64,000 nt of DNA from Nanobdellota archaeon (GTDB lineage: Archaea > Nanobdellota > Nanobdellia > Woesearchaeales > GW2011-AR4): positions 64,339 to 128,338 of the forward strand of contig JBBSWH010000005.1 of assembly GCA_038046385.1 (NCBI GenBank). The letters run 5' to 3'. The notes beneath the pieces were generated by a model, which worked only from the letters and a program-made list of their open reading frames with translations, ran no database searches and had not been told where the DNA came from. The translations under genes were made by a program, and so were the position numbers. This document shows, piece after piece, positions 3,652-58,057 of this stretch. Numbering within the stretch: the first letter of the stretch is position 1; the number at the start of each line of letters is the position of its first letter.

Positions 3652-3727
3652 TTTTTGTCACCTCTGAGTTTTTACGAAGAGGTTTGTTGAGCTTTGCTCA
3701 ACTTCACCTTTTTTGTTTTTTATTGGG

Positions 3728-3895
3728 CGCCGCGGCTGGGATTCCACGCAAATCGAAGATTTGCTGGGGTGCTCGAAAATCTATGATTTTCGACATTCAC
3801 CCAGAAGGATTAATCCTTTCCAAGATTTGAACCCAGAAGCTCTTTCGAGCAGGAAGGTCTTAGTTTCCCGGAATACCGAGTTATCCTACCGCGGC
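3728..3895 (-). tRNA. Class-II (Ser-shaped) tRNA gene with ~84-nt T-loop insertion; anticodon reads AAG in the 7-nt loop model
   Basis: Minus strand: GCCGCGG-TA-GGA-T-AACTCGGTA-T-TCC-G-GGAAA-CTAAGAC-CTTCC-TGCTCGAAAGAGCTT-CTGGG-TTCAAA[~84 nt]T-CCCAG-CCGCGGC-G. Perfect 7-bp acceptor, long variable arm, G73. Alternative fold has a 5-bp stem GGGAA/TTCCT with a 9-nt loop. Confidence 0.55.
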
Positions 3896-3931
3896 ATAAA
3901 GTTTAAATATCAGTAAACTAATCTTCTCTAT

Positions 3932-3965
3932 GAAGGTCTTAGTTTTCTGGAATGCCGGGTTATCC
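3932..3965 (-). repeat. Partial duplicate of the D-arm to anticodon-arm part of the adjacent tRNA
   Basis: 3932-3965 matches 3853-3886 at 30 of 34 positions, including the ACTAAGACC loop. It lacks an acceptor stem. Confidence 0.6.
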
Positions 3966-4130
3966 GGTTTTCTTTTTTATCTCCAGCCACTGATAGCCAT
4001 ATCCTTCATGAAGTTCTTTGCCACGATTGGATCCGGCATTGATGAATTTCTTAGTGGATTTCCATGGCATTGATAGCACTCTTCAAACCATGGCTTGACT
4101 GATGCTCCGCATGTTACACATCTCATCATT
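3960..4130 (-). CDS. Small protein, 56 aa (MMRCVTCGASVKPWFEEV..)
   Basis: Own codon-by-codon translation. AGGTGAT SD 4-5 nt upstream. Its 3' end overlaps the tRNA-like duplicate. Confidence 0.3.
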
Positions 4131-4325
4131 TGTATCACCTTTGATATTAATTGGCAAGGAAAACCGCGTGTGGGGGCTGCGGTTTTTTCCCTGCCTAATG
4201 GATTTAAGAGTAGAATTGGTTTATATACCTCACACGCACAGATGTCCAGTGTCCAGTGGTTAGTTTCCTTATTGAAAATAATAGATAAGTGCAGATTTAT
4301 ATAGGAAAATAACTTACCATAGGAA

Positions 4326-4592
4326 ATGGGATGCGTTCATCTTATTGTCTCTGGAAAAGTGCAGGGTGTTTTCTTTCGCGAGAACACAAGAAGAAAAGCA
4401 ATAGAGATTGGATTGAAAGGATATGCCAAGAATTTAAATGATGGAAATGTTGAAGTTGTGGCAGAAGGAAGCGAGAAAAAAATAAATGAATTAATTGATT
4501 TTATTAAAAATAATCCCGGATATTCAAAAATTGAAAATGTTAAGGTTTCACACAAGGAATATAATAATTTTAAATTATTTGAGGTATATTAA
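4326..4592 (+). CDS. acyP: Acylphosphatase
   Basis: 88 aa; VSGKVQGVFFR and GYAKNLNDGNVEVVAEG motifs. Confidence 0.85.
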   Translation: MGCVHLIVSGKVQGVFFRENTRRKAIEIGLKGYAKNLNDGNVEVVAEGSEKKINELIDFIKNNPGYSKIENVKVSHKEYNNFKLFEVY

Positions 4593-5659
4593 AAATCCGT
4601 CAATTTCTTCTCTGTCTTGTATTTTATGATTGTCGTGTTGCCGTCAGATCCGCCTTCTGTCTTTTCAGTGGTTATGAACTTGCTCTTCTCCAGCTTCTCT
4701 ATTTTTCTTTGGAAGGATTTGTAAACCAGCTTGCCGTTGTTTTCCTGATACAGCTTGAACAAATCCCCTATTCTTTTTCCTGAGTTGTTTTTAATTGTAT
4801 CAAGAATAATATGCTCTTCATTTTCCAGAGATTCAGGATTTTTTATAGTAAACTCTTCTATCTTTTTCAGTGACTGCTGCGCGTGCTCAAGGATTATCTT
4901 TCTTGATGATTTTGATTCTGCAATGTGGGCTGCTTCCTTCATCAGATGGAGCCCTGTCCTTAAGTCCTGCATTTCAAATGTTTTTTTAGCAACCAATTCA
5001 AAAGAATCATCGTCCCACACTCCAGGGTGGAAAGCATACTGGACTCTCTGCTTCAGAATTCCTTTTGTTTCCTCCTGATTGTATGGCTTGTATTCTATAA
5101 TTTCCGGCATTAATCGTGATTTTATGCGTTCATCAAGGTTTATCAGCCATTCCTTGTAGTTTGTGATAAGAATAATTGTTTTCCTGTAAATCTCTTCAAG
5201 AATCATGTAAATAAAATCTGGCTCTTCCAGCTTGTCAACTTCATCAAGAATAAAAACAACGGATTTCTTGTTAAGTGACTGCTTAACAATGCTGAAAAGC
5301 TCCTCTGTTTTTTTGTTCTGTATGAACTTAAATTCCAGCTTCTCGCAGATATAATAAAGTATCTTGAAAGTCGTGTTTCTTTGCCAGCAGTTTACATAAA
5401 TCGGAACAATATCGTCTGTCTGGTCTTCCAGCTCAACAATTATCTGCTTGCATGATACTGTTTTTCCCACGCCAGGCTGGCCGTAAATGAAAACGTTCTT
5501 GCCGCTTTTTTCATTGAACAGCGGCTTGATGCATTCTGCTACGATTCTTTGCTCCCTTTCCCTGTAAGGTGTTATTTTCGGCTGATAGTCAAACTCCAAA
5601 GCTATGTCATTCTTGAAAAGAGTCTCGTTGCTTGCCAGAATGTCCTTAAACAATGCCAT
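4589..5659 (-). CDS. cdc6: Orc1/Cdc6 replication initiator
   Basis: Walker A GQPGVGKT, Walker B FILDEVD, C-terminal winged helix; typical archaeal length of 356 aa. Confidence 0.9.
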   Translation of the reverse strand: MALFKDILASNETLFKNDIALEFDYQPKITPYREREQRIVAECIKPLFNEKSGKNVFIYGQPGVGKTVSCKQIIVELEDQTDDIVPIYVNCWQRNTTFKILYYICEKLEFKFIQNKKTEELFSIVKQSLNKKSVVFILDEVDKLEEPDFIYMILEEIYRKTIILITNYKEWLINLDERIKSRLMPEIIEYKPYNQEETKGILKQRVQYAFHPGVWDDDSFELVAKKTFEMQDLRTGLHLMKEAAHIAESKSSRKIILEHAQQSLKKIEEFTIKNPESLENEEHIILDTIKNNSGKRIGDLFKLYQENNGKLVYKSFQRKIEKLEKSKFITTEKTEGGSDGNTTIIKYKTEKKLTDF

Positions 5660-14458: not shown

Positions 14459-14519
14459 AAGAGAACCTAACATTAATCCAAATAACATTTATAAATGGAC
14501 TAGATGTACTTACCAGTAT

Positions 14520-14656
14520 GCCGAGGTCGCATAGCCTGGTATTGCGGTGATTTCTGAAAAGAAACCGTATGATTGCTAGGCTTACGCTTTTTGGAGTAAG
14601 TGTTATAAAAATCCACTGTCCGAAAGGATCCGGGGGTTCAAATCCTCCCCTCGGCG
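14520..14656 (+). tRNA. tRNA-Ser(GCU) with two putative introns (29/30 and 37/38)
   Basis: GCCGAGG-TC-GCA..TGC-G-GTG[14550-14570]GATTGCTA[14579-14610]A-TCCAC-TGTCCGAAAGGATCC-GGGGG-TTCAAAT-CCTCC-CCTCGGC-G. Spliced arm is GTGGA-TTGCTAA-TCCAC. Length check: 84+21+32=137 nt. Confidence 0.7.
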
Positions 14657-14670
14657 TTTATTTTAATAAA

Positions 14671-22451: not shown

Positions 22452-22572
22452 AGTTTTTTGATTATTTTCTTTAATATTAATTTTTAATTATATTTTATTG
22501 AATTTTATTTTTTAATGTTGTTCGTTATTGATTTTTTGTTAATGTGTTTCGTTTATTGAGTCGTTTTTATTT

Positions 22573-22617
22573 TTCCGTCCCTTCGGGACAAAAGTTACGC
22601 TCGCTGCATTGCTCGCC
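22573..22617 (+). repeat. Two-hairpin intergenic repeat, copy R1 (degenerate second hairpin)
   Basis: TTCCGT + GTCCC-TTC-GGGAC + ACA..GCTCGCTGCATTGCTCGCC, then an AT-rich TATTAATTGTAAAAA flank. Confidence 0.6.
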
Positions 22618-22669
22618 TATTAATTGTAAAAATGTAGAATTATTTCTATGCTCTAAATAAAAAAATTGG

Positions 22670-25642: not shown

Positions 25643-26353
25643 ATGATACAGAAAACGAAAGAAGAGTATTTGAAAGAACATAAGAATTGGGGCAGTATTA
25701 AACTTATCAATTTTCCCGAAAAGAATGAAAGATTGGCAGAGCTTGTCGGCATAATTCTTGGTGATGGTAACCTACATGTTTATACAAAAGGTAGTAATGT
25801 GGGAACTTATTCTTTAAGAATAGCTGGAAATTACATAAAAGATCATGAATATCTTACAAATTATGTGGCTAGTTTGTGCAAAGACTTGTTTATGGTTAAG
25901 CCTAGGACATACAAACAGCCAAATGTAAATTGCATTTATCTTATAATTGATGGTAGGCTAATTATAGATTTTTTAATTGAGATTGGATTAAAAAGCGGCA
26001 ACAAAATAAAAAGTCAAGTTACAATACCCGATTGGATTATGGAAAATAATGAATATCTTAAATCATGCATAAGGGGATTGATAGATACCGATGGCTGCGT
26101 TTATGAAATGCTGCCTCATTGGCCAGGCTTGTTCCAGATTAATTTTGAGAACAGAAACATAACTTTGTTGAGAGATACAAGAGAGGCTTTGATAAAGCTA
26201 GGCTATCACCCTTCTAAAATTTGTGGCAATAGAACGCAATTCGGAACTAAAATTTATATCTCTCGAAAGGAAGAAATCAAAAGATTTTATAAAGAGATTG
26301 GGTCTAGCAACGATAGGAATATAAAACAATTCACTAAAGTGTTTAACTCATAG
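25643..26353 (+). CDS. Free-standing LAGLIDADG homing-endonuclease-like protein
   Basis: Two LAGLIDADG motifs (LAELVGIILGDGNL; IRGLIDTDGCV). GGAGG SD 9 nt before the ATG at 25643. The stop overlaps tRNA-Gln by 2 nt. Confidence 0.8.
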   Translation: MIQKTKEEYLKEHKNWGSIKLINFPEKNERLAELVGIILGDGNLHVYTKGSNVGTYSLRIAGNYIKDHEYLTNYVASLCKDLFMVKPRTYKQPNVNCIYLIIDGRLIIDFLIEIGLKSGNKIKSQVTIPDWIMENNEYLKSCIRGLIDTDGCVYEMLPHWPGLFQINFENRNITLLRDTREALIKLGYHPSKICGNRTQFGTKIYISRKEEIKRFYKEIGSSNDRNIKQFTKVFNS

Positions 26354-26442
26354 CCCCGTAGTCTAGCGGTCACTTGAATAAAGCTGCAGAAGGATTCGGC
26401 CCTTTGGAGGCTGAGGCGGCAGTTCGAATCTGCCCGGGGCTA
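26352..26442 (+). tRNA. tRNA-Gln(UUG) with 18-nt D-loop insertion
   Basis: AGCCCCG-TA-GTCT-AGCGGTCA[26373-26390]AGGAT-T-CGGCC-CTTTGGA-GGCTG-AGGC-GGCAG-TTCGAAT-CTGCC-CGGGGCT-A. A1:U72 as in archaeal tRNA-Gln. Confidence 0.75.
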
Positions 26443-26506
26443 TATTTTAATTTTCTCTTGATTATGGGCAATACTTAGATATACCTTACCAATATTTCTC
26501 TAAACT

Positions 26507-30747: not shown

Positions 30748-31677
30748 TTAAGAATTTGTTATTTCTTTTATTCTTTCAACAACTTCATCAATAAGATAAT
30801 CCGGTGTTGATGCGCCTGCTGTGACTCCGATTTTTTCTTTTCTGGCAAACCATCCTTTCTGCAATTGGCCTTGAGACTGGATGAAATAAGACTGGACGCC
30901 GAACTCTTTGCATTTTGTATGGAGTTCTTTTGAATTTGAAGAATTCAAGCCGCCGATTACAATTACAACGTCGCTTTCCTTGGCAAGGTCTTCTGTATCT
31001 GATTGCCTTTGTTTTGTGGGATTGCATATTGTGTCAACCCATGCGTATTTTGCATTTGTTTCCTTCATGCTCAAAGGGATATTCTCAAACTTTCCGCTTT
31101 TCATCTTTGAGTTTGTTTCATCAATCAGCTTCTTGTAGCCGTAGACCGACATTGTTGTCTGCGATATTATAGCATACTTGCCGTATTCTGCCTTATTGAT
31201 GAAATCAACAATCCTGTCAGAGTCTTCTGCATGCTCCACAATGAATGTGTCTTTGCCTTTTAGATGATAAGATGTGCCGATTGATTCCGGATGGTCGTGC
31301 TTTCCAAAGATTATGACTTCGTAGCCTGCATTCTTCAATTTTATTGCAACATTATGCACCAAAGTGACTAGAGGGCAGGTTGCATCGTTCAGGTTATTGC
31401 TTTTAGTAATTGATTTCTGCTCAAGAATCTGGTAAGTTGTTCCTGGTTCGCCATGAGCTCTAAGAACAGTGACTGCGTTTTGGGGGATTTCGCTTATGCT
31501 GTCAACAAAAACAATTCCCTTGCCTTCAAGGTCGTTGATAACCCTTTCATTGTGCACAAGCTGGCCAAGAACATATGTTTTTTCTGTATTTTTTCCTGCA
31601 ACTTCCTCTGCAATCTCTATTGCTTTCTTCACTCCAAAACAGAAGCCTGCGTGCTTTGCTACTTTTATGGTTGGCAT
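30748..31677 (-). CDS. ispH: 4-hydroxy-3-methylbut-2-enyl diphosphate reductase
   Basis: HAGFCFGV, LVHN, TICNPT motifs. Confidence 0.9.
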   Translation of the reverse strand: MPTIKVAKHAGFCFGVKKAIEIAEEVAGKNTEKTYVLGQLVHNERVINDLEGKGIVFVDSISEIPQNAVTVLRAHGEPGTTYQILEQKSITKSNNLNDATCPLVTLVHNVAIKLKNAGYEVIIFGKHDHPESIGTSYHLKGKDTFIVEHAEDSDRIVDFINKAEYGKYAIISQTTMSVYGYKKLIDETNSKMKSGKFENIPLSMKETNAKYAWVDTICNPTKQRQSDTEDLAKESDVVIVIGGLNSSNSKELHTKCKEFGVQSYFIQSQGQLQKGWFARKEKIGVTAGASTPDYLIDEVVERIKEITNS

Positions 31678-31807
31678 TTTTTATTTAGGGTTTAATTTTA
31701 AATTATTTTATTATATTTTTATTATTTTGATATTTTTTAGTTTATTGAATTTTTTTATTTATTGATATTCGTTAATGTGTTATTAATTTGTTTTATTAAA
31801 AATTTAT

Positions 31808-31859
31808 TTCCGTCCTTCGGACAAACTCTTGTGCTCGCTGGCACCATAACCAGCTCGCC
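31808..31859 (+). repeat. Two-hairpin intergenic repeat, copy R2
   Basis: TTCCGT + GTCC-TTC-GGAC + ACA..GCTC-GCTGG-CACCATAA-CCAGC-TCGC. The 26 nt at 31833-31858 are identical to 36249-36274. Confidence 0.75.
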
Positions 31860-31895
31860 AAATATTATAATATGCACCCACCCCTGAATGCTTAA

Positions 31896-32744
31896 CTATA
31901 CTGTTTTTGTCAAGAAGACAAATGGATAATCGTACTGCATCTTGAAAAATGCTTCCCTTGCCTCGTAAATGCTGTTGAAAATTGCAAAAACTGTCGGGCC
32001 TGAGCCGGAAACGCATGCGTTTAATGCATCGTTTCTCATCAAATTTGATTTTATGTCGTTTAGCGCCTTGTATTTTTTTGTTACAATAGTGTCAAAATCA
32101 TTATGGAGGTTTTTTGCGATTGCCTTTATGTCCTTCCTTTCCATTGCCTTAATAAGCTCATTTATATCTGCGTTAGTTTTTATTTTAGGCTTCTCCTTGT
32201 CAAATGCAGCATAAGCCCATTTTGTAGAAACACGGAATCCTGGATTTATGAGAACGATGTTGATGCTGAAAGCCTTTTTTATTCTTTTTATCTTGTCGCC
32301 AATGCCCTCAACCAATGCAGCCTGGTCTTCAATAAAAAATGGAACATCTGAGCCAATATGAGATGCTATGTCTATGAGCTGTTTTTCCTTCAGTTTAAGG
32401 CTCCACATTTTATTAAGATGCATCAGGGCAGTTGCTGCGTTGCTTGACCCTCCGCCAAGGCCGGCTTCAAGCGGTATGTTTTTCTCGAGAAATATCTTGA
32501 CACCGTGTTTTACCTTGTATTTTTTCTTTAAAATTATAGCTGCCTTGTAAGCAAGGTTTTCTTCGCTTGCCAGCTCCGGGCTGGTGCTTTCTATTATAAC
32601 TCTGTCTTCGTTTATCGGCTCAAAATGGATTGTATCGCTCAATTCGATGCGCTGCATTACAGACTGTATGTTATGGTATCCAGAGCCAAGCCTTTTGCCT
32701 ATCTTGAGGAAAAGGTTGATTTTTGCATAGGAATTGATTGCCAT
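31896..32744 (-). CDS. ispE: 4-diphosphocytidyl-2-C-methyl-D-erythritol kinase
   Basis: AKINLFL, GLGGGSSNAA GHMP motif. Confidence 0.9.
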   Translation of the reverse strand: MAINSYAKINLFLKIGKRLGSGYHNIQSVMQRIELSDTIHFEPINEDRVIIESTSPELASEENLAYKAAIILKKKYKVKHGVKIFLEKNIPLEAGLGGGSSNAATALMHLNKMWSLKLKEKQLIDIASHIGSDVPFFIEDQAALVEGIGDKIKRIKKAFSINIVLINPGFRVSTKWAYAAFDKEKPKIKTNADINELIKAMERKDIKAIAKNLHNDFDTIVTKKYKALNDIKSNLMRNDALNACVSGSGPTVFAIFNSIYEAREAFFKMQYDYPFVFLTKTV

Positions 32745-32809
32745 ATAGGTCTGGATGCCTTTTTCCTATATTAATATTTGCTAATTTAAAGTGCCATAAT
32801 AAGCAATTT

Positions 32810-33955
32810 TTAGCTCAAGCTGACTGTAACAAAGCACTGCATGCCCTTGCCAAGTCCAAAAGAGCTTAATCTTTCCCCTGAAGTATAAGAAATCCCTATT
32901 TTGCCTTCATTTAAGCCTAAGATTTTTGACAATGATGATTTTATCTTTTCTGTATGCGGCTCAAGCTTTGGTTTTCCTGCCTCTATCATTATGCTTATAT
33001 TGTTTATTGACAGATTCTTCTGCTTCATTTTTTCCAGAATGGCTTCAAGATATTTTTTGCTGTCGGTTATTCCTTTTTTGAACATGCTGTCTGCATAATA
33101 ACCAAGTCCCCTTTCTCCAATTGCAGAGCTTATTGCATTAAAGAGTGCATGCAGGATGATATCTCCATCTGAATTTGCCTCGAATCCGGGTTCGTTTATT
33201 TTATATCCGCCAAGAACCAGTTTTTTGTTTTTATTACTTGTGAAATGATGGCTGTCCTGGCCAAATCCAATTCTGAAATCTGACATTATTTTTTTTGCCA
33301 TGGCAAAATCATTCGGAGTAGTAATCTTGAAATTTTCATAGGAACATTCAACGATTTTTACTTTTTTGTTGAGAGCTTCAACAAGCGATACGTCGTCTGT
33401 TGCAATTATTTTTTTGTTTCTTGCGTTCTTGTATGCTTCTGTAAATAACCCATATTGGATACACTGCGGAGTCTGCATCTGCCAGACATCTTTTCTGCTG
33501 ATTGTCTCTGATGCAAAATTGCCTTTTGTTCTTTTGATTGTGTCCTTTAATCTGAATGCTGCTGCAGACGCTCCGTGTTTTTTTGCAGCTGCAATGCAAT
33601 TTTTTATCTCTTCATCTTTTACAAGGGGATTGCTGCCGTTATGCACGAGAATTATATCTCTGCTTTTGGCTTTTTTTATCGACATTAATCCGTTATAGAC
33701 TGAATCCTGGCGCTCTTTTCCGCCTTCAACTATATTTTTTATTTTGCCGAGAGTATGCTGTTTTTTTATTTCATTTATTTTTTTGAAATTGATTTTTTGA
33801 GAAACTACGGCTATTTCATCTATTGCGCTGCAGCTCTGGAATTTTTCCAGTGTATGCGCAAGTATCGGCTTATTGTTTATCTCGAGAAAAACTTTATTTG
33901 TGTTGCTGTTCATTCGCTTTCCTTTTCCTGCTGCGACGATTATTGCGAAGTTCAT
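32810..33955 (-). CDS. ispDF: Bifunctional IspD cytidylyltransferase / IspF cyclodiphosphate synthase
   Basis: N-domain IIVAAGKGKRM. C-domain GFGQDSHHF..NSDGDIILHAL. Confidence 0.9.
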   Translation of the reverse strand: MNFAIIVAAGKGKRMNSNTNKVFLEINNKPILAHTLEKFQSCSAIDEIAVVSQKINFKKINEIKKQHTLGKIKNIVEGGKERQDSVYNGLMSIKKAKSRDIILVHNGSNPLVKDEEIKNCIAAAKKHGASAAAFRLKDTIKRTKGNFASETISRKDVWQMQTPQCIQYGLFTEAYKNARNKKIIATDDVSLVEALNKKVKIVECSYENFKITTPNDFAMAKKIMSDFRIGFGQDSHHFTSNKNKKLVLGGYKINEPGFEANSDGDIILHALFNAISSAIGERGLGYYADSMFKKGITDSKKYLEAILEKMKQKNLSINNISIMIEAGKPKLEPHTEKIKSSLSKILGLNEGKIGISYTSGERLSSFGLGKGMQCFVTVSLS

Positions 33956-33963
33956 TTTAGAGA

Positions 33964-35124
33964 TTAATTTTTTATTTGTATTTCTTCTTCAATTGTTTTT
34001 TTTGTTTCTTCCTTTGTTTTTCTGTCCGTTTCCAGTATATCCTTCAGGCTTGGATTTTTTATAGTATTGTGACTGTCCATTGCTTTTTTTATCAGCCTTG
34101 CAATGTCCAAAAACTTTATTTTGTTATCAAGAAATGCATGAACTGCTATTTCATTTGCGGCGTTCATCACGCAAGGCAAAGTTCCTCCGATGTTTCCTGC
34201 TTCGTATGCATATTTTAAGCACGGAAATCTTTCCAAATCTGGCTCCCAGAATTCCAAATTTTTTATCTCTTCCAAATTCAATGATTTCTGCATGCTTGAA
34301 AATCTTTTTGGATATGACAATGCATACTGTATCGGGGTTTTCATGTCCGGCATTCCCAATTGCGCAATTACGGACTTGTCATGAAACTCTACAAGGGAAT
34401 GTATTATGCTCTGCGGATGAATTACAACTTTTATTTTATCGTATTCTATATTGTAAAGCCAGTGCGCTTCAATAACTTCAAATCCCTTATTCATCCACGT
34501 CGCACTATCAATTGTGATTTTTGCGCCCATGCTCCAAGTAGGGTGCTTTAATGCATCTTTTGCATTCACATTTTCCAACTGCTCTTTTGTATGTTTTTTG
34601 AAAGGGCCTCCGGAACATGTGATTGTTATTTTCTCAACTTCATTTATTCTTTCTCCATTTAAGCACTGGAAGATTGCAGAATGTTCAGAATCAATCGGCA
34701 TCAAATTAATTTGATTTTTTTTTGCTTCCCCCATTATTATCGAGCCTGCTGCCACCAACGTTTCTTTGTTTGCCAGTGCAATATTCTTCTTTGCCCTTAT
34801 TGCGTTGTACGTCGGCTCAACTCCAATCGATCCTACAAGAGAGTTTATGACTGTGTCTGCTTCCTGCATTGTGGCTATCTTGTTCAATCCCTCAATCCCC
34901 GAATAAACTTGGCACGGAGAGAAGTTAAGCAAATCATCAACCTTGCTTTTGTCCATTATCGCAACTGCTTTTGGCTTAAACTCTTTTATCTGTTTCAGAA
35001 GAAGCTCATGGTTTTTGTTTGATGATAATCCAACAATTTTGAATTCATTCGGGAATTGCCTTACAATATCCAGAGTTTGAGTGCCGATGCTTCCGGTTGA
35101 TCCTAAAATAGAAATGTGTTTCAT
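33964..35124 (-). CDS. dxr: 1-deoxy-D-xylulose 5-phosphate reductoisomerase
   Basis: ILGSTGSIGTQTLD, LANKE, DSEHSAIFQC. Confidence 0.9.
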   Translation of the reverse strand: MKHISILGSTGSIGTQTLDIVRQFPNEFKIVGLSSNKNHELLLKQIKEFKPKAVAIMDKSKVDDLLNFSPCQVYSGIEGLNKIATMQEADTVINSLVGSIGVEPTYNAIRAKKNIALANKETLVAAGSIIMGEAKKNQINLMPIDSEHSAIFQCLNGERINEVEKITITCSGGPFKKHTKEQLENVNAKDALKHPTWSMGAKITIDSATWMNKGFEVIEAHWLYNIEYDKIKVVIHPQSIIHSLVEFHDKSVIAQLGMPDMKTPIQYALSYPKRFSSMQKSLNLEEIKNLEFWEPDLERFPCLKYAYEAGNIGGTLPCVMNAANEIAVHAFLDNKIKFLDIARLIKKAMDSHNTIKNPSLKDILETDRKTKEETKKTIEEEIQIKN

Positions 35125-36191
35125 CTTTCCTGTGCAATCTCTTTAATCTCCTTCAGAAGAACTTCCATGATTTCGCTGTCGTTTATCCTTCTGACTATTT
35201 TTCCATGCTTGTACAGCAGGTGATTTCCCGGTGCGCCAACAATTCCAAGGTCTGCTTTTTTGCTTTCTCCCGGGCCGTTTACAGCGCAGCCCATTATCGC
35301 AATATGAACCGGCTTTTTCATCTTTTCTGTTGCGCCTTCAAGCTGTTCAACAAGCTTTATGACATCAACTTCTGTTCTTGCGCACGTCGGGCAGGATGTG
35401 ATTTGAACGCCGTCGTTTCTTAATCCCAATGATCTTAAAATGTATTTTGCTGTTTTTATTTCTTCTTTTGGATCTTCAGACAATGAAACACGTATTGTGT
35501 CGCCGATGCCTTCTGAAAGCAGCATTCCCATTCCCATTGCAGATTTTATTGCGCCAGGCAATTTTGATCCTGCTTCTGTAACACCAAGATGCAAAGGATA
35601 ATCTGTTTTTGCTGCAAACATCCTGTATGCCTGCACCATCCTTGGAACATCTGAAGCTTTCAATGAAACAATTGTATTGTAAAAATCCAAATCCTCAAGA
35701 ATTTTTATGTGGCGCATTGCGCTTTCTACCATCGCTTCTGCCTTGTAACCATATTTTTCAAACAAATCGCGCTCAAGAGATCCAAGGTTAACTCCGATTC
35801 TTATCGGAACTCCATAATCTTTGCATGCCTTAACAACCTGCTGCACCTTGTCAGTGTTTCCGATGTTTCCTGGATTTATGCGTACTTTGTCAACGTACTT
35901 TACTGCTTCCAATGCAATCCTGTAGTCAAAATGAATATCGACAACAAGAGGGATGCTGATGTTTTCCCTTATTTCCTTCAGAGCTTTTGCAGCTTCCATT
36001 GTCGGAGCAGAAACTCTTACTATGTCGCAGCCGATCTCTTCCAATCCGTGAATCTGTTCAATTGTTGCCTTTGCATCAACAGTATCTGTTGTGGTCATTG
36101 ACTGGATTGGTATCGGTGCATCTCCACCGATGAACAGTTTTCCGACTTTTACTTTGCGGGATTTCCTTCTGATGATGGTGTCTTGAATCAT
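35121..36191 (-). CDS. ispG: HMBPP synthase (GcpE)
   Basis: PIQSMTTTDT, RINPGN, CPTCART, MGCAVNGPGE. Confidence 0.9.
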   Translation of the reverse strand: MIQDTIIRRKSRKVKVGKLFIGGDAPIPIQSMTTTDTVDAKATIEQIHGLEEIGCDIVRVSAPTMEAAKALKEIRENISIPLVVDIHFDYRIALEAVKYVDKVRINPGNIGNTDKVQQVVKACKDYGVPIRIGVNLGSLERDLFEKYGYKAEAMVESAMRHIKILEDLDFYNTIVSLKASDVPRMVQAYRMFAAKTDYPLHLGVTEAGSKLPGAIKSAMGMGMLLSEGIGDTIRVSLSEDPKEEIKTAKYILRSLGLRNDGVQITSCPTCARTEVDVIKLVEQLEGATEKMKKPVHIAIMGCAVNGPGESKKADLGIVGAPGNHLLYKHGKIVRRINDSEIMEVLLKEIKEIAQER

Positions 36192-36223
36192 TTTATTTGT
36201 AGTTTATTTATTTTAAAATTTAA

Positions 36224-36274
36224 TTCCGTGCTTCGCACAGACTTTACAGCTCGCTGGCACCATAACCAGCTCGC
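36224..36274 (+). repeat. Two-hairpin intergenic repeat, copy R3
   Basis: TTCCGT + GTGC-TTC-GCAC + ACA..GCTC-GCTGG-CACCATAA-CCAGC-TCGC, followed by AAATTAATTATAAA. Confidence 0.75.
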
Positions 36275-36298
36275 AAATTAATTATAAAGATTATAAAA

Positions 36299-38281
36299 CT
36301 ATTTTGCTAAAAACTCCGAGATTGATTTTTTTATTCCGTCTTTATCTATTCCTATAAGTTTTTTCTGAATATCCGGTCTTCCGTGCTCGATGAATTCATC
36401 AGGGATTCCAACCATCTTCAGCTCTGATTTTATTCCGTTTTTCTCCAATAGTTCAAGAACTGCGCTTCCAAATCCTCCTGTTACGGTTGATTCCTCAAGT
36501 GTTATTATTTTCTTGAATTTTTTAGCGTATGCTATAATTGTTTTTTCATCGAGAGGCTTTACAAATCTTGCATTTATTATTGAAGCATTGCAGCCAAGCT
36601 CTTCTGATGCCCTCATCGCGTCATAAAGTATCTGGCCTACTCCAATTATCAGTATGTCTTTTCCCTTTTTCATTATTTCAGCTTTTCCAATCTCAAACTT
36701 TTTCATTTCCTGGTCGATTGCAACTCCGACTCCGTTTCCCCTAGGATATCTTATTGCACTCGGTCCATTTATGAGTGTGGCTGTGTAGAGCATGTGCTGC
36801 AGCTCATTCTCGTCTTTTGGAACCATTATTGTCATGTTAGGTATTATTCTCAAGAATGCTGTGTCAAATGGTCCGTTGTGCGTCGGGCCATCATCTCCAA
36901 CCAATCCTGCGCGATCCATTGCAAAAATAACAGGCAATTTTTGAAGTGCAACATCGTGGATTATCATGTCATATGCTCTCTGCAAAAATGTAGAATAGAT
37001 TGCGCACACCGGCTTCATTCCGCTTATTGCGAGGCCTGCTGCAAATGTGACTGCGTGCTGCTCCGCGATTCCAACATCAATTGTCCTTTCCGGGAAAAAT
37101 TTCTCAAATTTATTTAATCCTGTGCCTGATTTCATCGCGGCCGTTATTGCAACGATTTTTTCGTCGTTTGCGGCAACTTTTATCATTGCATTTGCAAAAG
37201 CGTCTGTGTAAGTTATGATATTGCTTTTTGCCGGATGTTTTTTTCCTGATTCGATGTCGAACGGGCTCATGCCGTGGCACTTATCGATGTCCTCGTTTGC
37301 AAATTTGAATCCTTTTCCTTTTTCTGTTTTTACGTGCAGTAGCACCGGCCCTTCCAGATTTTTTATGTTTTGCAAAGCAGGTATAAGTTCGTTAAGGTTG
37401 TGGCCGTCAATAGGCCCGTAGTACTGAAACCCTAAACTTTCAAAGAATGATCCTTCGCTTGTGATTGTTCTTAATCGCTCCTGCACCTTGAAAACCCTTC
37501 CAAGCTCCTCTTCACCCATGCCCGGAATTCTTTCAAGAAGATTTCTTGTTCCCTTCCTTAGCTTGAAGTAGCTTTTATTGAGCACAATCCTGTTAAGATA
37601 GTTTGAAATTGCCCCTACGTTCGGAGAAATACTCATGCGATTGTCATTCAATATTACAAGCATACTTGTTTTCAGGTATCCTGTATTGTTTAAGCCTTCA
37701 AAAGCAAGCCCTGCTGTAAGAGCGCCGTCGCCAATGATTGCAACAACCTTGTGATTTTCTTTTTTGTAATCGCGCGCTTTTGCCATTCCCAAAGCTGCAG
37801 AAATTGAAGTTGAAGCGTGGCCTGCGCCAAAGGAGTCATATTCTGATTCAAAAATATTGCAAAACCCGCATACCCCCTTATACTGCCTTAACGTATGGAA
37901 CTTGTCTTTTCTTCCTGTCACAAGCTTGTGAGTATAGCTCTGATGGCCCGTATCAATCACTATCTTATCCTTTGGGGTATTGAAAACATAATGAACAGCA
38001 AGTGTTAATTCTACTGTTCCTAATGGACCGCCCAAGTGACCGCCGGTTTGAGAGACTGTGTCTATGATTTTGTCCCTGATGTTTTGTGCAAGAATTGGAA
38101 GTTCTTCTACCTTTAATTTCTTAAGGTCTTTTGGAGAGTTTACCTTGTTGAGGAGGTTTATTTTAATCTTTGAGGATTGATTAGGGATTACCTGCAATTG
38201 CTCAGCAATAAGATTACTCTGAGACTTCTTAGATGAAAGCAATTTGTTTAAAGGCTTTTTTTTACTCATCACACACCCCAA
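36299..38281 (-). CDS. dxs: 1-deoxy-D-xylulose-5-phosphate synthase
   Basis: GGHLGGPLG, DTGHQSYTHK, IGDGALT and transketolase-like C-domains. Start may be the ATG at 38269. Confidence 0.9.
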   Translation of the reverse strand: MGCVMSKKKPLNKLLSSKKSQSNLIAEQLQVIPNQSSKIKINLLNKVNSPKDLKKLKVEELPILAQNIRDKIIDTVSQTGGHLGGPLGTVELTLAVHYVFNTPKDKIVIDTGHQSYTHKLVTGRKDKFHTLRQYKGVCGFCNIFESEYDSFGAGHASTSISAALGMAKARDYKKENHKVVAIIGDGALTAGLAFEGLNNTGYLKTSMLVILNDNRMSISPNVGAISNYLNRIVLNKSYFKLRKGTRNLLERIPGMGEEELGRVFKVQERLRTITSEGSFFESLGFQYYGPIDGHNLNELIPALQNIKNLEGPVLLHVKTEKGKGFKFANEDIDKCHGMSPFDIESGKKHPAKSNIITYTDAFANAMIKVAANDEKIVAITAAMKSGTGLNKFEKFFPERTIDVGIAEQHAVTFAAGLAISGMKPVCAIYSTFLQRAYDMIIHDVALQKLPVIFAMDRAGLVGDDGPTHNGPFDTAFLRIIPNMTIMVPKDENELQHMLYTATLINGPSAIRYPRGNGVGVAIDQEMKKFEIGKAEIMKKGKDILIIGVGQILYDAMRASEELGCNASIINARFVKPLDEKTIIAYAKKFKKIITLEESTVTGGFGSAVLELLEKNGIKSELKMVGIPDEFIEHGRPDIQKKLIGIDKDGIKKSISEFLAK

Positions 38282-40103: not shown

Positions 40104-40126
40104 TCATAACTATTAAAATAATTTAA

Positions 40127-40222
40127 TTCCGTCGCCCACGAAAATCATTGATTTTCGGGGCCCAGAAAATTTATAATTTTCTTGGGCTTCGCGACAAAAA
40201 TTAGGCGGCCCACATTGGCCGC
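40127..40222 (+). repeat. Two-hairpin intergenic repeat, copy R4, with two extra hairpins nested in hairpin 1
   Basis: TTCCGT + GTCGC[CCACGAAAATCATTGATTTTCGGGG + CCCAGAAAATTTATAATTTTCTTGGG]CTTC-GCGAC + ACA..GCGGCC-CACATT-GGCCGC + AAATATATAAA. Confidence 0.7.
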
Positions 40223-40258
40223 AAATATATAAATTAAGTTAACTAGGAGGTAAACAAA

Positions 40259-56791: not shown

Positions 56792-57742
56792 ATGAACTCG
56801 CTTAGAAATCAAAAAATTTGTTTGAAAGAATTATCAAAAAAATCGCTGATTTCAATGTATTCCGAAAGAGGGTTATCAACATCAGCAATTGCAAGAGTTT
56901 ACAATTGCAATCCAGAAACTGTGCGTAGAATTATGATTAAACATAAAATTGCTAGGAGAAGGCTACATGAAAGAAAATATAAAATTAAAAAAGAGGAGTT
57001 AGAAATATTATATCTTAAAGAAAAAAAGTCAACAATTGAAATTGCTAAAAAATATAATTGCTCCCAATGGGTTATTTGGTCTTTACTCAAGAAGTATAGG
57101 ATTAATGCACGAGGTGCTAATGAATATCATTCGTGGAAATCTCCTTCAAATCAAATTAAGCCAGTTTTAGATGAGTCTCCTACATTAGCCTATGCTGTTG
57201 GAGTGATTTTAGGAGATGGTTGGACTTACAAAAGAGGGCATTTTTATACTATAGGCTTAGAAGTGTCAGATAAAAAATTTTGTGAGAGCTTCCATGTGGC
57301 TTTAAAGAAGCTAAACCTAAACCCCTCTATGTTTCATAGCAGAGGCTACTGGAGAACTGTATGCTCTTCAAAATTGTTTTATCTATGGCTTGAATCTTTA
57401 GATATAAATCATATAAATAAAATATCCAAAAAATATCCTGAGGATTTCCTAAGGGGATTTTATGAGAGTGAAGGTCATCTTTCTGTTTACAAAAGCAAGG
57501 AGTATTATTTCACAAGAACAAGCATAATTATCTGCAACACTAAAAAAGAATGGATGTACTTAATCAAAAGCCTATTAGAAAGTCTGGATTTTCATCCTAA
57601 AATCTATAATATAGCTAGCCAAAAACCCAAATGGAAACCTTTATGGAGGCTGGTTTTAGCAAGAAACTTAGAAGCTAAAAGATTTATTAGCTTGGTAAAA
57701 CCTTGTATTAAAATTGGAGAAAAAAGACGTCGAAACCTTTAA
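56792..57742 (+). CDS. LAGLIDADG homing-endonuclease-like protein with N-terminal HTH repeats
   Basis: Two HTH units (LSTSAIARVYNC.., KSTIEIAKKYNC..) followed by LAYAVGVILGDGW and FLRGFYESEGHL. Confidence 0.75.
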   Translation: MNSLRNQKICLKELSKKSLISMYSERGLSTSAIARVYNCNPETVRRIMIKHKIARRRLHERKYKIKKEELEILYLKEKKSTIEIAKKYNCSQWVIWSLLKKYRINARGANEYHSWKSPSNQIKPVLDESPTLAYAVGVILGDGWTYKRGHFYTIGLEVSDKKFCESFHVALKKLNLNPSMFHSRGYWRTVCSSKLFYLWLESLDINHINKISKKYPEDFLRGFYESEGHLSVYKSKEYYFTRTSIIICNTKKEWMYLIKSLLESLDFHPKIYNIASQKPKWKPLWRLVLARNLEAKRFISLVKPCIKIGEKRRRNL

Positions 57743-57966: not shown

Positions 57967-57995
57967 GTTGTTTTAATTTTTCTAAAAATTTAATT

Positions 57996-58038
57996 TCCGT
58001 GGCTTCGCCACAACAGATACGCGCCCCGCATTGGGCGC
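57996..58038 (+). repeat. Two-hairpin intergenic repeat, copy R5
   Basis: TTCCGT + GTGGC-TTC-GCCAC + ACA..GCGCCC-CGCATT-GGGCGC + AAATTTATTATAAAA. Confidence 0.7.
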
Positions 58039-58057
58039 AAATTTATTATAAAATTTA

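Follow-up and report, generated by a model that had tools for sequence, protein, structure and literature searches.

A clade-specific family of intergenic two-hairpin repeats in Woesearchaeota with possible affinities to bacterial REP elements

A 64,000-nt stretch of contig JBBSWH010000005.1 from a Nanobdellota archaeon (GCA_038046385.1, positions 64,339 to 128,338; referred to as the window) contains five intergenic copies, R1 to R5 from left to right, of a short repeat with two hairpins. All five have the same orientation, and the question is what such a repeat does: is it an RNA gene, a signal in neighbouring transcripts, or an element acting in DNA? An earlier note, made from the letters of the window, had described the five copies and leaned toward a self-contained small RNA (sRNA) gene. 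We find that they belong to a clade-specific, high-copy family in Woesearchaeota (DPANN) carrying the methylerythritol phosphate (MEP) pathway. Tentatively, we favour the reading that the repeat resembles the repetitive extragenic palindromic (REP) elements and bacterial interspersed mosaic elements (BIMEs), being strand-polar, with its minus strand under selection, probably acting in single-stranded DNA and with many copies placed against housekeeping promoters.

The five copies were found at the expected sites on the + strand when these were read directly (Table 1). A covariance model trained on R1, R5 and R4 without its insertion recovered exactly these five copies, all on the + strand, when the whole window was scanned on both strands with filters off (E-values 4e-22 to 8e-4, next-best match E=0.7), and the ~4 kb of contig beyond the window held no further copy. 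The strict pattern TTCCGT-N-CTTCG-N-ACA had an expectation of 0.00 in shuffles. The window is archaeal, as seen from its archaeal RNase P RNA, the ribosomal protein genes L1, L10 and L12, and FtsZ; the best matches of its L10 are metagenome-assembled genomes of Woesearchaeota/Nanoarchaeia (up to 85% identity). It also has a bacterial-type MEP pathway cluster (IspH, IspE, IspG, DXS) at 30748-38281. This pathway has already been reported as a trait of Woesearchaeota subgroup J (PMC8421398).

Many more copies are present in relatives and in metagenomes. Models identified ~20 further copies in 80 L10 neighbourhoods from species-representative genomes, all in relatives with ≥71% L10 identity, and the 50 more distant of these loci had no copy. 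For the metagenomes we used a pattern in which only TCCGT, CTTYG, ACA and GCTCG were fixed, and at least 120 loci matched. Among the 121 matches listed, 91 lay in an A/T-rich context and are true copies, while the 30 in a G/C-rich context served as an internal negative control; the metagenome-derived counts of position, orientation and loops given below rest on the matches listed. A second model gave at least 146 matches in at least 102 of all compared loci (labelled L001, L026 and so on), representing at least 144 distinct copies, all of them intergenic. Groundwater metagenomes from the Hainich and 'NC_groundwater' sites contributed many of the copies. The density is about one copy per 5-15 kb. 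A scan of viral contigs gave no match to the family.

As the earlier note had supposed, the repeat belongs to no named family: Rfam 15 had no match to it at gathering or permissive thresholds, and its matches were limited to RNase P RNA, tRNA and small-subunit rRNA, none of them at the repeats. Known RNA families, including tRNA, C/D and H/ACA sRNAs and riboswitches, were therefore rejected. C/D boxes and a pseudouridylation pocket were also absent on reading the sequence, and a tRNA or tRNA fragment beside the copies was dismissed after ARAGORN found almost nothing near the repeats. In the literature on DPANN archaea or Woesearchaeota we found no description of such repeats. Many metagenome contigs start or stop inside a copy or directly next to one (L107, L120, L136, L150, L154, L167, L171, L129, L152, and L184), which suggests that the repeats break metagenome assemblies.

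On the + strand, the repeat consists of an A/T box, (T)TCCG, a 3-7 bp hairpin with a 3-nt loop (hairpin 1), ACA plus 8-9 nt, a second hairpin (hairpin 2) and another A/T box. The two hairpins are always about 8-10 nt apart. Hairpin 2 has a base of the form GC / TC.TC / G.. and a top that ranges from a 6-nt loop to inserts of >100 nt. The earlier note had this layout right and the unit too short, as the A/T-rich boxes of ~12 nt (5') and ~13 nt (3') are also conserved: conservation reaches only as far as ~12 nt upstream of TCCGT and ~13 nt past hairpin 2 (-12 / +13), and the unit is about 70-90 bp long. Both hairpins fold on either strand in every window copy. The hairpin-1 stems, each with a TTC loop, and the hairpin-2 stems were as previously described, and so was the 26-nt identity between R2 and R3 (31833-31858 and 36249-36274). 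R1, which had been called degenerate, belongs fully to the family and represents a short subtype (GCTCGC-YGCATT-GCTCGC) also found in L026, L107, L122, L152, L166, L185, and L193.

Is the structure itself under selection? The two stem positions of hairpin 1 not fixed by the pattern are complementary in 91/91 true metagenome copies versus 12/30 chance matches, with the pairs CG/CG, TG/CA, GC/GC, CC/GG, GG/CC, and TC/GA and two G.T pairs. A 55-copy MAFFT alignment (A3) was compared with 500 shuffles: 91.1% of its cells are paired (69.5% in shuffles), double-sided changes occur in 193 cells (54 in shuffles) and the covariation score is 0.50 (0.115 in shuffles), none of the 500 shuffles reaching the observed values. 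As a control, sliding the partners by 1-3 columns lowered pairing to 33-47%. A second set of 25 copies from genome loci and the window (A4), which were not selected by pattern although they were aligned by model, had 90.9% pairing versus 65.3% in shuffles and double-sided changes at 14/17 pairs. Finally, the stem differences between the orthologous copies in the DXS-IspG spacers of L006, L009 and L026 are fully compensated. Selection for the two hairpins, which the earlier note had deduced from covariation among the window copies, is therefore solid. A chance origin is ruled out by the shuffles, the covariance-model scan and the stem complementarity relative to chance matches. Neutrality is unlikely, given that DPANN genomes are tiny and compact, that one spacer per ~5-15 kb is occupied and that the structure is kept across species. 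A conserved small open reading frame starting from an NUG (AUG/GUG/UUG) in the loop of the minus strand was considered since two copies gave similar peptides. It was rejected on inspection of the alignment because indels of 1-2 nt shift the frame between copies; a conserved peptide is also at odds with the compensatory stem changes, which would change the amino acids too.

The + strand had been taken as the folding strand, and here our results reverse the earlier description, as both thermodynamics and motifs favour the minus strand. At its base, hairpin 2 has a TC/TC internal loop in 53/55 copies, which on the minus strand becomes tandem G.A in 5'-CGAG-3'/5'-CGAG-3' (sheared). The same block recurs inside hairpin 1 and higher in hairpin 2 in some copies. 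R4 and R5 have Watson-Crick pairs in its place. Similarly, the hairpin-1 loops TTC, TAC and TGC read GAA, GTA and GCA on the minus strand, that is, a C(GNA)G triloop, with a GAA loop in 105/140 copies and a C-G closing pair in 123/140. The commonest hairpin-1 variant includes GCGAAGC exactly. The GCGNAGC mini-hairpin is extraordinarily stable as DNA, and d(GNA) loops depend on their closing pair (PMC13037366, PMC3201870). The invariant C.A beside hairpin 1 turns into U.G pairs on the minus strand, lengthening the stem to 7-8 bp. With RNA parameters the minus strand is more stable in 52/55 copies (mean -22.0 vs -17.95 kcal/mol, p 1.6e-10), with DNA parameters in 53/55, and it is more stable in all five window copies. 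As the oddities of the + strand become stable motifs on the minus strand, the minus strand is probably the strand under selection.

The repeats also have a preferred position relative to genes. Canonical copies, i.e., those matching the pattern, have a gene start on their hairpin-1 side in 61/82 cases, usually 29-57 nt away, and a gene end on their hairpin-2 side in 46/73. Divergent spacers (18) are more frequent than convergent ones (7), and 37 are unidirectional. The genes at the hairpin-1 side are housekeeping genes: S15 (three times), L11 (twice), S13, S19e, PyrD (three times), CTP synthase (twice), DnaK, proteasome alpha, aldolase, and a class I tRNA synthetase. Within the window only R3 and, loosely, R2 obey this gene-start rule.

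Copies occur in both senses relative to their neighbouring genes. Five out of five copies on one strand has by itself a probability of 1/16, and the single orientation stated for the window does not extend to the family as a rule, since 16 pairs are inverted tail to tail, their hairpin-2 ends 18-74 nt apart (a single pair is head-to-head). What does hold regionally is the claim that orientation does not depend on the flanking genes. Two or more unpaired copies are present in 15 loci, of which 12 are uniform, where ~6 are expected (P ~0.001 under random orientation and ~0.002 under a model tying orientation to the adjacent gene); they include the window (5/5), L017 (3/3), L026 (3/3) and L030 (3/3). 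When read against L10, copies in the window, L003, L029 and L030 point one way and those in nine other genomes the opposite way. A regional gene-strand bias was rejected as the cause of this co-orientation: coding is 56% vs 44%, and the long loci go 18/36 each way.

A gene of the Orc1/Cdc6 type is located at 4589-5659 of the window on the - strand (the identical product in L202 has Pfam AAA_22 and Cdc6_lid). Beside it is a noncoding stretch of ~600 nt (3720-4325) with two 34-nt direct repeats (3853-3886 and 3932-3965, 88% identical), which contain TTCCNGGAA-like cores, and with a TCCAGTGG motif near 4250. This stretch may be a replication origin; reading it as an intron-bearing tRNA was not supported. 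Each of the five window copies is to the right of this candidate origin.

Orthologous spacers differ in their repeats. The spacer between DXS and IspG has no repeat in L039 and L003, a repeat in one sense in L006, L009, L017 and L026, and one in the opposite sense in the window. The spacer between L10 and L12 holds R4 in the window and, in L020, a repeat in the other sense plus a third hairpin module (see below); other relatives have the third module alone, a different module or a hairpin resembling an anti-Shine-Dalgarno sequence. The closest relatives sampled (L001, L002, and L039) had no copy. Since divergence within a contig is as large as between contigs, the family is old and its turnover slow rather than recent. 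Target-site duplication was not seen (own flanks match 6.44 vs 6.32 for flanks of different copies, p 0.18), and the ends TCCGT.. and ..CTATTTA in A3 are not terminal inverted repeats. With neither of these two hallmarks found, a MITE (miniature inverted-repeat transposable element) was rejected. A TTCAA pentanucleotide is conserved beside hairpin 1, with a weaker copy after hairpin 2, and was rejected as a duplicated target because the two flanks do not covary. Inspection of A3 likewise showed no covariation of the spacer end (TTGT, TAGT, TACT) with the 3' flank, as guide complementarity would have it. The only orphan hairpin 1 (TTCAATCCGTGCCTTCGGCACA, L190 476-510) lies 30 nt upstream of a complete element and is a local duplication. 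No association with a REP-associated tyrosine transposase (RAYT) or TnpA was seen in ~1.8 Mb of loci, where the sole Y1 transposase is that of an ordinary IS200 with unrelated hairpins; this gene, on a related Woesearchaeota contig (L060 3629-4072, - strand), is flanked by its own CACAGCTTGCTGTG-type hairpins.

Taken as an REP/BIME-like element, the repeat would be a strand-specific hairpin module. Its hairpins would fold where nucleic acid is single-stranded, most likely in DNA exposed in the course of replication or of transposition-like processing, and the folded hairpins would be recognised by a structure-specific protein. The commonest subfamily, lying directly against the BRE/TATA-like box (BRE, B recognition element) of leaderless housekeeping genes, might have been co-opted as a promoter boundary. 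Such a single-stranded DNA module with protein recognition would explain both the chromosomal polarity and the gain, loss and inversion at the same spacers. Several observations weigh against this reading. The tail-to-tail pairs break strict polarity, and GC skew in the window follows the gene strand only, with no read-out of replication. Non-canonical copies have no gene-start preference. The strand difference with DNA parameters is only ~1 kcal/mol, the + strand is weakly favoured by its own G.T pairs (9, vs 4 A.C), and the strand asymmetry stems from motifs common to the copies, which are thus not independent evidence. The divergence within contigs gives no sign of recent copying, tblastn of the ~1.8 Mb of loci showed no cognate transposase or RAYT-like gene, and no autonomous version carrying cargo between its hairpins turned up. 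Finally, some copies must be transcribed as 5' leaders in the + sense, for example in L017, where the IspG ATG is 17 nt after hairpin 2 (L101, L117, and L171 are similar).

The first alternative, which we consider unlikely, is a cis-acting RNA element at transcription-unit boundaries, with the hairpins in neighbouring mRNAs as 3' untranslated region or 5' leader. It could be an exonuclease barrier, a processing site or a read-through insulator, with a conserved RNA-binding protein reading motifs in the loops and flanks. Covarying stems combined with conserved single-stranded motifs are what one typically sees in RNA, hairpin 1 is lengthened on the minus strand by U.G-type pairs, and extra hairpins are accommodated in all three loops with the stems undisturbed. 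The minus-strand sense is the gene sense in 28/37 unidirectional spacers, the copies just mentioned are necessarily part of a 5' leader, and the adjacent module of A-run, hairpin and T-run at many loci resembles a bidirectional terminator. Yet no one strand is co-directional with host transcription throughout, as R2 and R3 are co-directional with their flanking genes in the minus-strand sense and R4 and R5 in the other, and neighbouring genes fail to explain the regional co-orientation. Moreover, stable RNA hairpins usually have tetraloops, and hairpin 1 has a C-G-closed 3-nt GNA loop instead. Gene 3' ends typically lie 100-150 nt off, in many cases with a separate terminator-like module in between. 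No U-tract immediately follows the hairpins on either strand, including the favoured one: the + strand continues with ACAAWAT.. after hairpin 1 and C-TATTYATT after hairpin 2, and the minus strand with ACGGATTGAAAA after hairpin 1. Runs of T5 are not enriched at any fixed offset from the repeats, and an intrinsic or oligo-U terminator was rejected for lack of the U-tract.

Could the repeat instead be promoter architecture at the DNA level? TATA-like A/T boxes abut both ends, and the G/C-rich inverted repeats between these two outward-facing boxes might, as a cruciform or hairpin or through a structure-specific factor, fix the direction of promoters, insulate those that are divergent or in tandem, or absorb transcription-driven supercoiling. 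The conserved boxes flush with both ends speak for this, and the gene-start distance of the canonical copies fits leaderless mRNA made from the adjacent box. So do the excess of divergent over convergent spacers, the location of the tail-to-tail pairs between divergent genes, the finding that either repeat end can face the IspG start depending on the genome, and the status of the flanked genes as first genes of housekeeping operons. We still consider this reading improbable. The gene-start rule is broken by the non-canonical copies and by three of the five window copies, and R1 sits in a convergent spacer. The combination of TTGAA and an A/T run after it, which gave no clear peak, was rejected as a general promoter motif in these genomes. 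A G/C clamp or factor site would need no covarying stems, strand-specific mismatches or loops, and we know of no precedent in archaeal transcription.

The leading idea of the earlier note, a family of sRNA genes with their own promoter and a two-hairpin RNA of ~50-150 nt, continuing at some loci through the third hairpin to a T5-7 run, now seems very improbable. In its support, a TATA-like box lies just upstream of TTCCGT, preceded by an A-run in the window copies, and in 20/91 copies a third hairpin with T5-7 follows ~25 nt downstream, a promoter-RNA-terminator layout; orientation is also independent of the flanking genes. The distance from an archaeal TATA box to the transcription start is ~26 nt, however, and with boxes flush with the ends this spacing leaves no conserved promoter placed for an RNA holding both hairpins. 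The TTCCGT-side box would start transcription after hairpin 1 and the other box inside hairpin 2, with no conserved signal further out, and the discrete 45-55 nt RNA proposed earlier is thus unlikely. The strand transcribed in that layout would be the less stable one, convergent tail-to-tail pairs ~20-50 nt apart are odd for genes, Rfam has no match, and one copy per 5-15 kb, present at some orthologous sites and missing at others, does not resemble a trans-acting RNA gene. On the wrong strand, the repeats could be mistaken for sRNA genes.

Table 1. Features of the five window copies. Strand refers to the inferred folding strand; sequences are written on the + strand.
Feature	Position	Strand	Sequence	Setting or remark
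R1	22565..22626	-		Short subtype; between nitroreductase-like gene (+) and FtsZ (-), convergent
R1 tag	22573-22578		TTCCGT	
R1 hairpin 1	22577-22589		GTCCC TTC GGGAC	
R1 hairpin 2	22599-22616		GCTCGC TGCATT GCTCGC	
R2	31800..31867	-		Between IspE (-) and IspH (-)
R2 tag	31808-31813		TTCCGT	
R2 hairpin 1	31812-31822		GTCC TTC GGAC	
R2 hairpin 2	31833-31858		GCTCGC-TGG-CACCATAA-CCA-GCTCGC	
R3	36213..36288	-		Copy named in the earlier finding; between DXS (-) and IspG (-), IspG start codon 33 nt from hairpin-1 side
R3 5' A/T box	36213-36223			
R3 tag	36224-36229		TTCCGT	
R3 hairpin 1	36228-36238		GTGC TTC GCAC	
R3 spacer between hairpins	36239-36248			
R3 hairpin 2	36249-36274			
R3 3' A/T box	36275-36288			
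R4	40119..40232	-		Between ribosomal protein genes L10 (+) and L12 (+)
R4 tag	40127-40132		TTCCGT	
R4 hairpin-1 arms	40131-40135 and 40191-40195		GTCGC and GCGAC	
R4 insertion	40136..40187			~52 nt inside hairpin-1 loop; two A/T-rich hairpins with G/C clamps
R4 hairpin 2	40205-40222		GCGGCC CACATT GGCCGC	Perfect stem
R5	57987..58048	-		Between LAGLIDADG/HTH gene (+) and SFM1-like methyltransferase gene (+)
R5 tag	57995-58000		TTCCGT	
R5 hairpin 1	57999-58011		GTGGC TTC GCCAC	
R5 hairpin 2	58021-58038		GCGCCC CGCATT GGGCGC	

With its insertion, R4 keeps the hairpin-1 stem and folds overall into a three-way structure. The insertion includes a mini-hairpin (CGAAAATCATTGATTTTCG) that is also present at window position 3774 and in loops of related elements. 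Its general form, CGAAAATC-NNN-GATTTTCG, occurs at 3774-3792 and 40139-40157 of the window and in L156, L112, L157, L133, L094, L020, L039, L003, and L009. It recurs as an insertion, perhaps an intron-like or a mobile mini-element, in the R4 hairpin-1 loop, in loops of hairpin 2 or the third module elsewhere, in the hairpin of the L12 leader and in the noncoding stretch beside orc1/cdc6.

The third module consists of an A-run, GCG-GWTT-ACTTT...AAAGT-CGC, TCTCG and then T5-7, and resembles a bidirectional terminator. It was seen in 22 copies with compensatory changes (ACTTT/AAAGT, ACCTC/GAGGT), either ~25 nt after the two-hairpin repeat or alone (L081, L095, L100, L105, L110, L119, L126, L132, L017 9740-9830, L023, L001, and others). 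Two other modules follow the repeat at some loci, GTGCCATCGAAGATGGTAC..CAAACTTTTTCGCAAAAAGTTTG (module b; L104, L130, L186, L191, L003, and L004) and CCTGAGCTGGGTTCCCAT..GCTGGGAAGCGAC (module c; L084, L113, and L195), neither with an Rfam match. In the L10-L12 spacer, a GGAGGT..ACCTCC hairpin just upstream of the L12 Shine-Dalgarno sequence (L039 10852-10979, L003 11074-11236, and L009 10353-10509) may be a translational control structure for L12. A small hairpin, GCGCC-WATTGTCA-AGCGC, lies upstream of the repeat in the DXS-IspG spacers of L003, L006, L009, L017 and L026, and is kept even without the repeat (L003). Upstream of R5, the window has a free-standing gene with helix-turn-helix (HTH) and LAGLIDADG domains (56792-57742). 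With introns allowed, ARAGORN predicted a candidate tRNA-Gln (43-nt intron, 14519-14657) and a candidate tRNA-Cys (11-nt intron, 26351-26443), both missed by the default ARAGORN run and by Rfam.

At its most far-reaching, the REP-like reading would make this the first such system in archaea: a strand-polar two-hairpin element of single-stranded DNA, its orientation tracking replication, that is read or moved by a dedicated structure-specific protein (HUH-type or other). We regard this extended version as speculative and rather unlikely. If it were true, the orientation of copies could reveal replichores and origins in uncultivated DPANN genomes, and the copies near promoters would illustrate co-option by the host. 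Polarity with respect to replication would offer a sequence-only handle on replication direction in unculturable organisms, and an element acting on transcription would represent a new type of boundary element at the leaderless promoters of archaea. Either way, the family provides a well-supported structural alignment of >140 copies for experiments.

The closest comparison is with the bacterial REP, BIME and REPIN elements, palindromic repeats tagged with GTAG and CGTC (PMC3733652, PMC2817692), of which a survey lists families in bacterial phyla only (PMC3733652). Both are short, G/C-rich imperfect palindromes that are high in copy number, strictly extragenic and clade-specific, with short tags beside the stem, stem mismatches and frequent inverted dimers. 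Both form mosaics with other small motifs, and their copies diverge yet keep the hairpin. In contrast to REPs, the repeat is archaeal and has two different hairpins at a fixed spacing of 9-10 nt rather than one. Its tag is TCCG(T) rather than an invariant GTAG or CGTC; CGTC is found only within the CCGTCGC variant, where its final base (C, G or T) is a stem position and covaries. Its dimers are tail-to-tail, unlike those of REPs, and no RAYT was found in the ~1.8 Mb of loci. REPs favour positions downstream of genes, whereas the repeat favours divergent, promoter-proximal spacers.

Palindrome-associated transposable elements (PATEs) derive from IS200/IS605, whose single-strand transposition uses the lagging-strand template (PMC6006769). 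They share with the repeat two sub-terminal imperfect hairpins, the lack of terminal inverted repeats and target duplication, a pentanucleotide (TTCAA in the repeat) beside one end with a similar one near the other, strand-specific hairpin features and regionally uniform orientation. Unlike in PATEs, the hairpins of the repeat are dissimilar and the variable material lies inside the loops and not between the hairpins. For the repeat, no complementarity was seen between the bases beside a hairpin foot and the putative cleavage site, neither a cognate TnpA nor an autonomous copy was found, and the copies are old.

The Correia elements of Neisseria are promoter-bearing MITEs with terminal inverted repeats and TA duplication, two features that the repeat does not have. 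Like the repeat, they are abundant, intergenic and found beside gene starts, where they are able to supply promoter-like boxes. Integron attC sites are read as a folded single strand, with paired boxes around a small bubble and R''/R' cores. The repeat would have in common with them a structure-based recognition of the single strand, and it shares their bubble-separated paired boxes and a terminal structure of variable size. Unlike attC, it lies among housekeeping genes, with no R''/R' cores, cassette organisation or nearby integrase. Finally, the GCGNAGC mini-hairpins and d(GNA) triloops are like hairpin 1 on the minus strand, with its C-G-closed GAA, GTA or GCA loop. They represent a physico-chemical motif rather than an element family, to which the repeat adds a longer covarying stem and a second hairpin.

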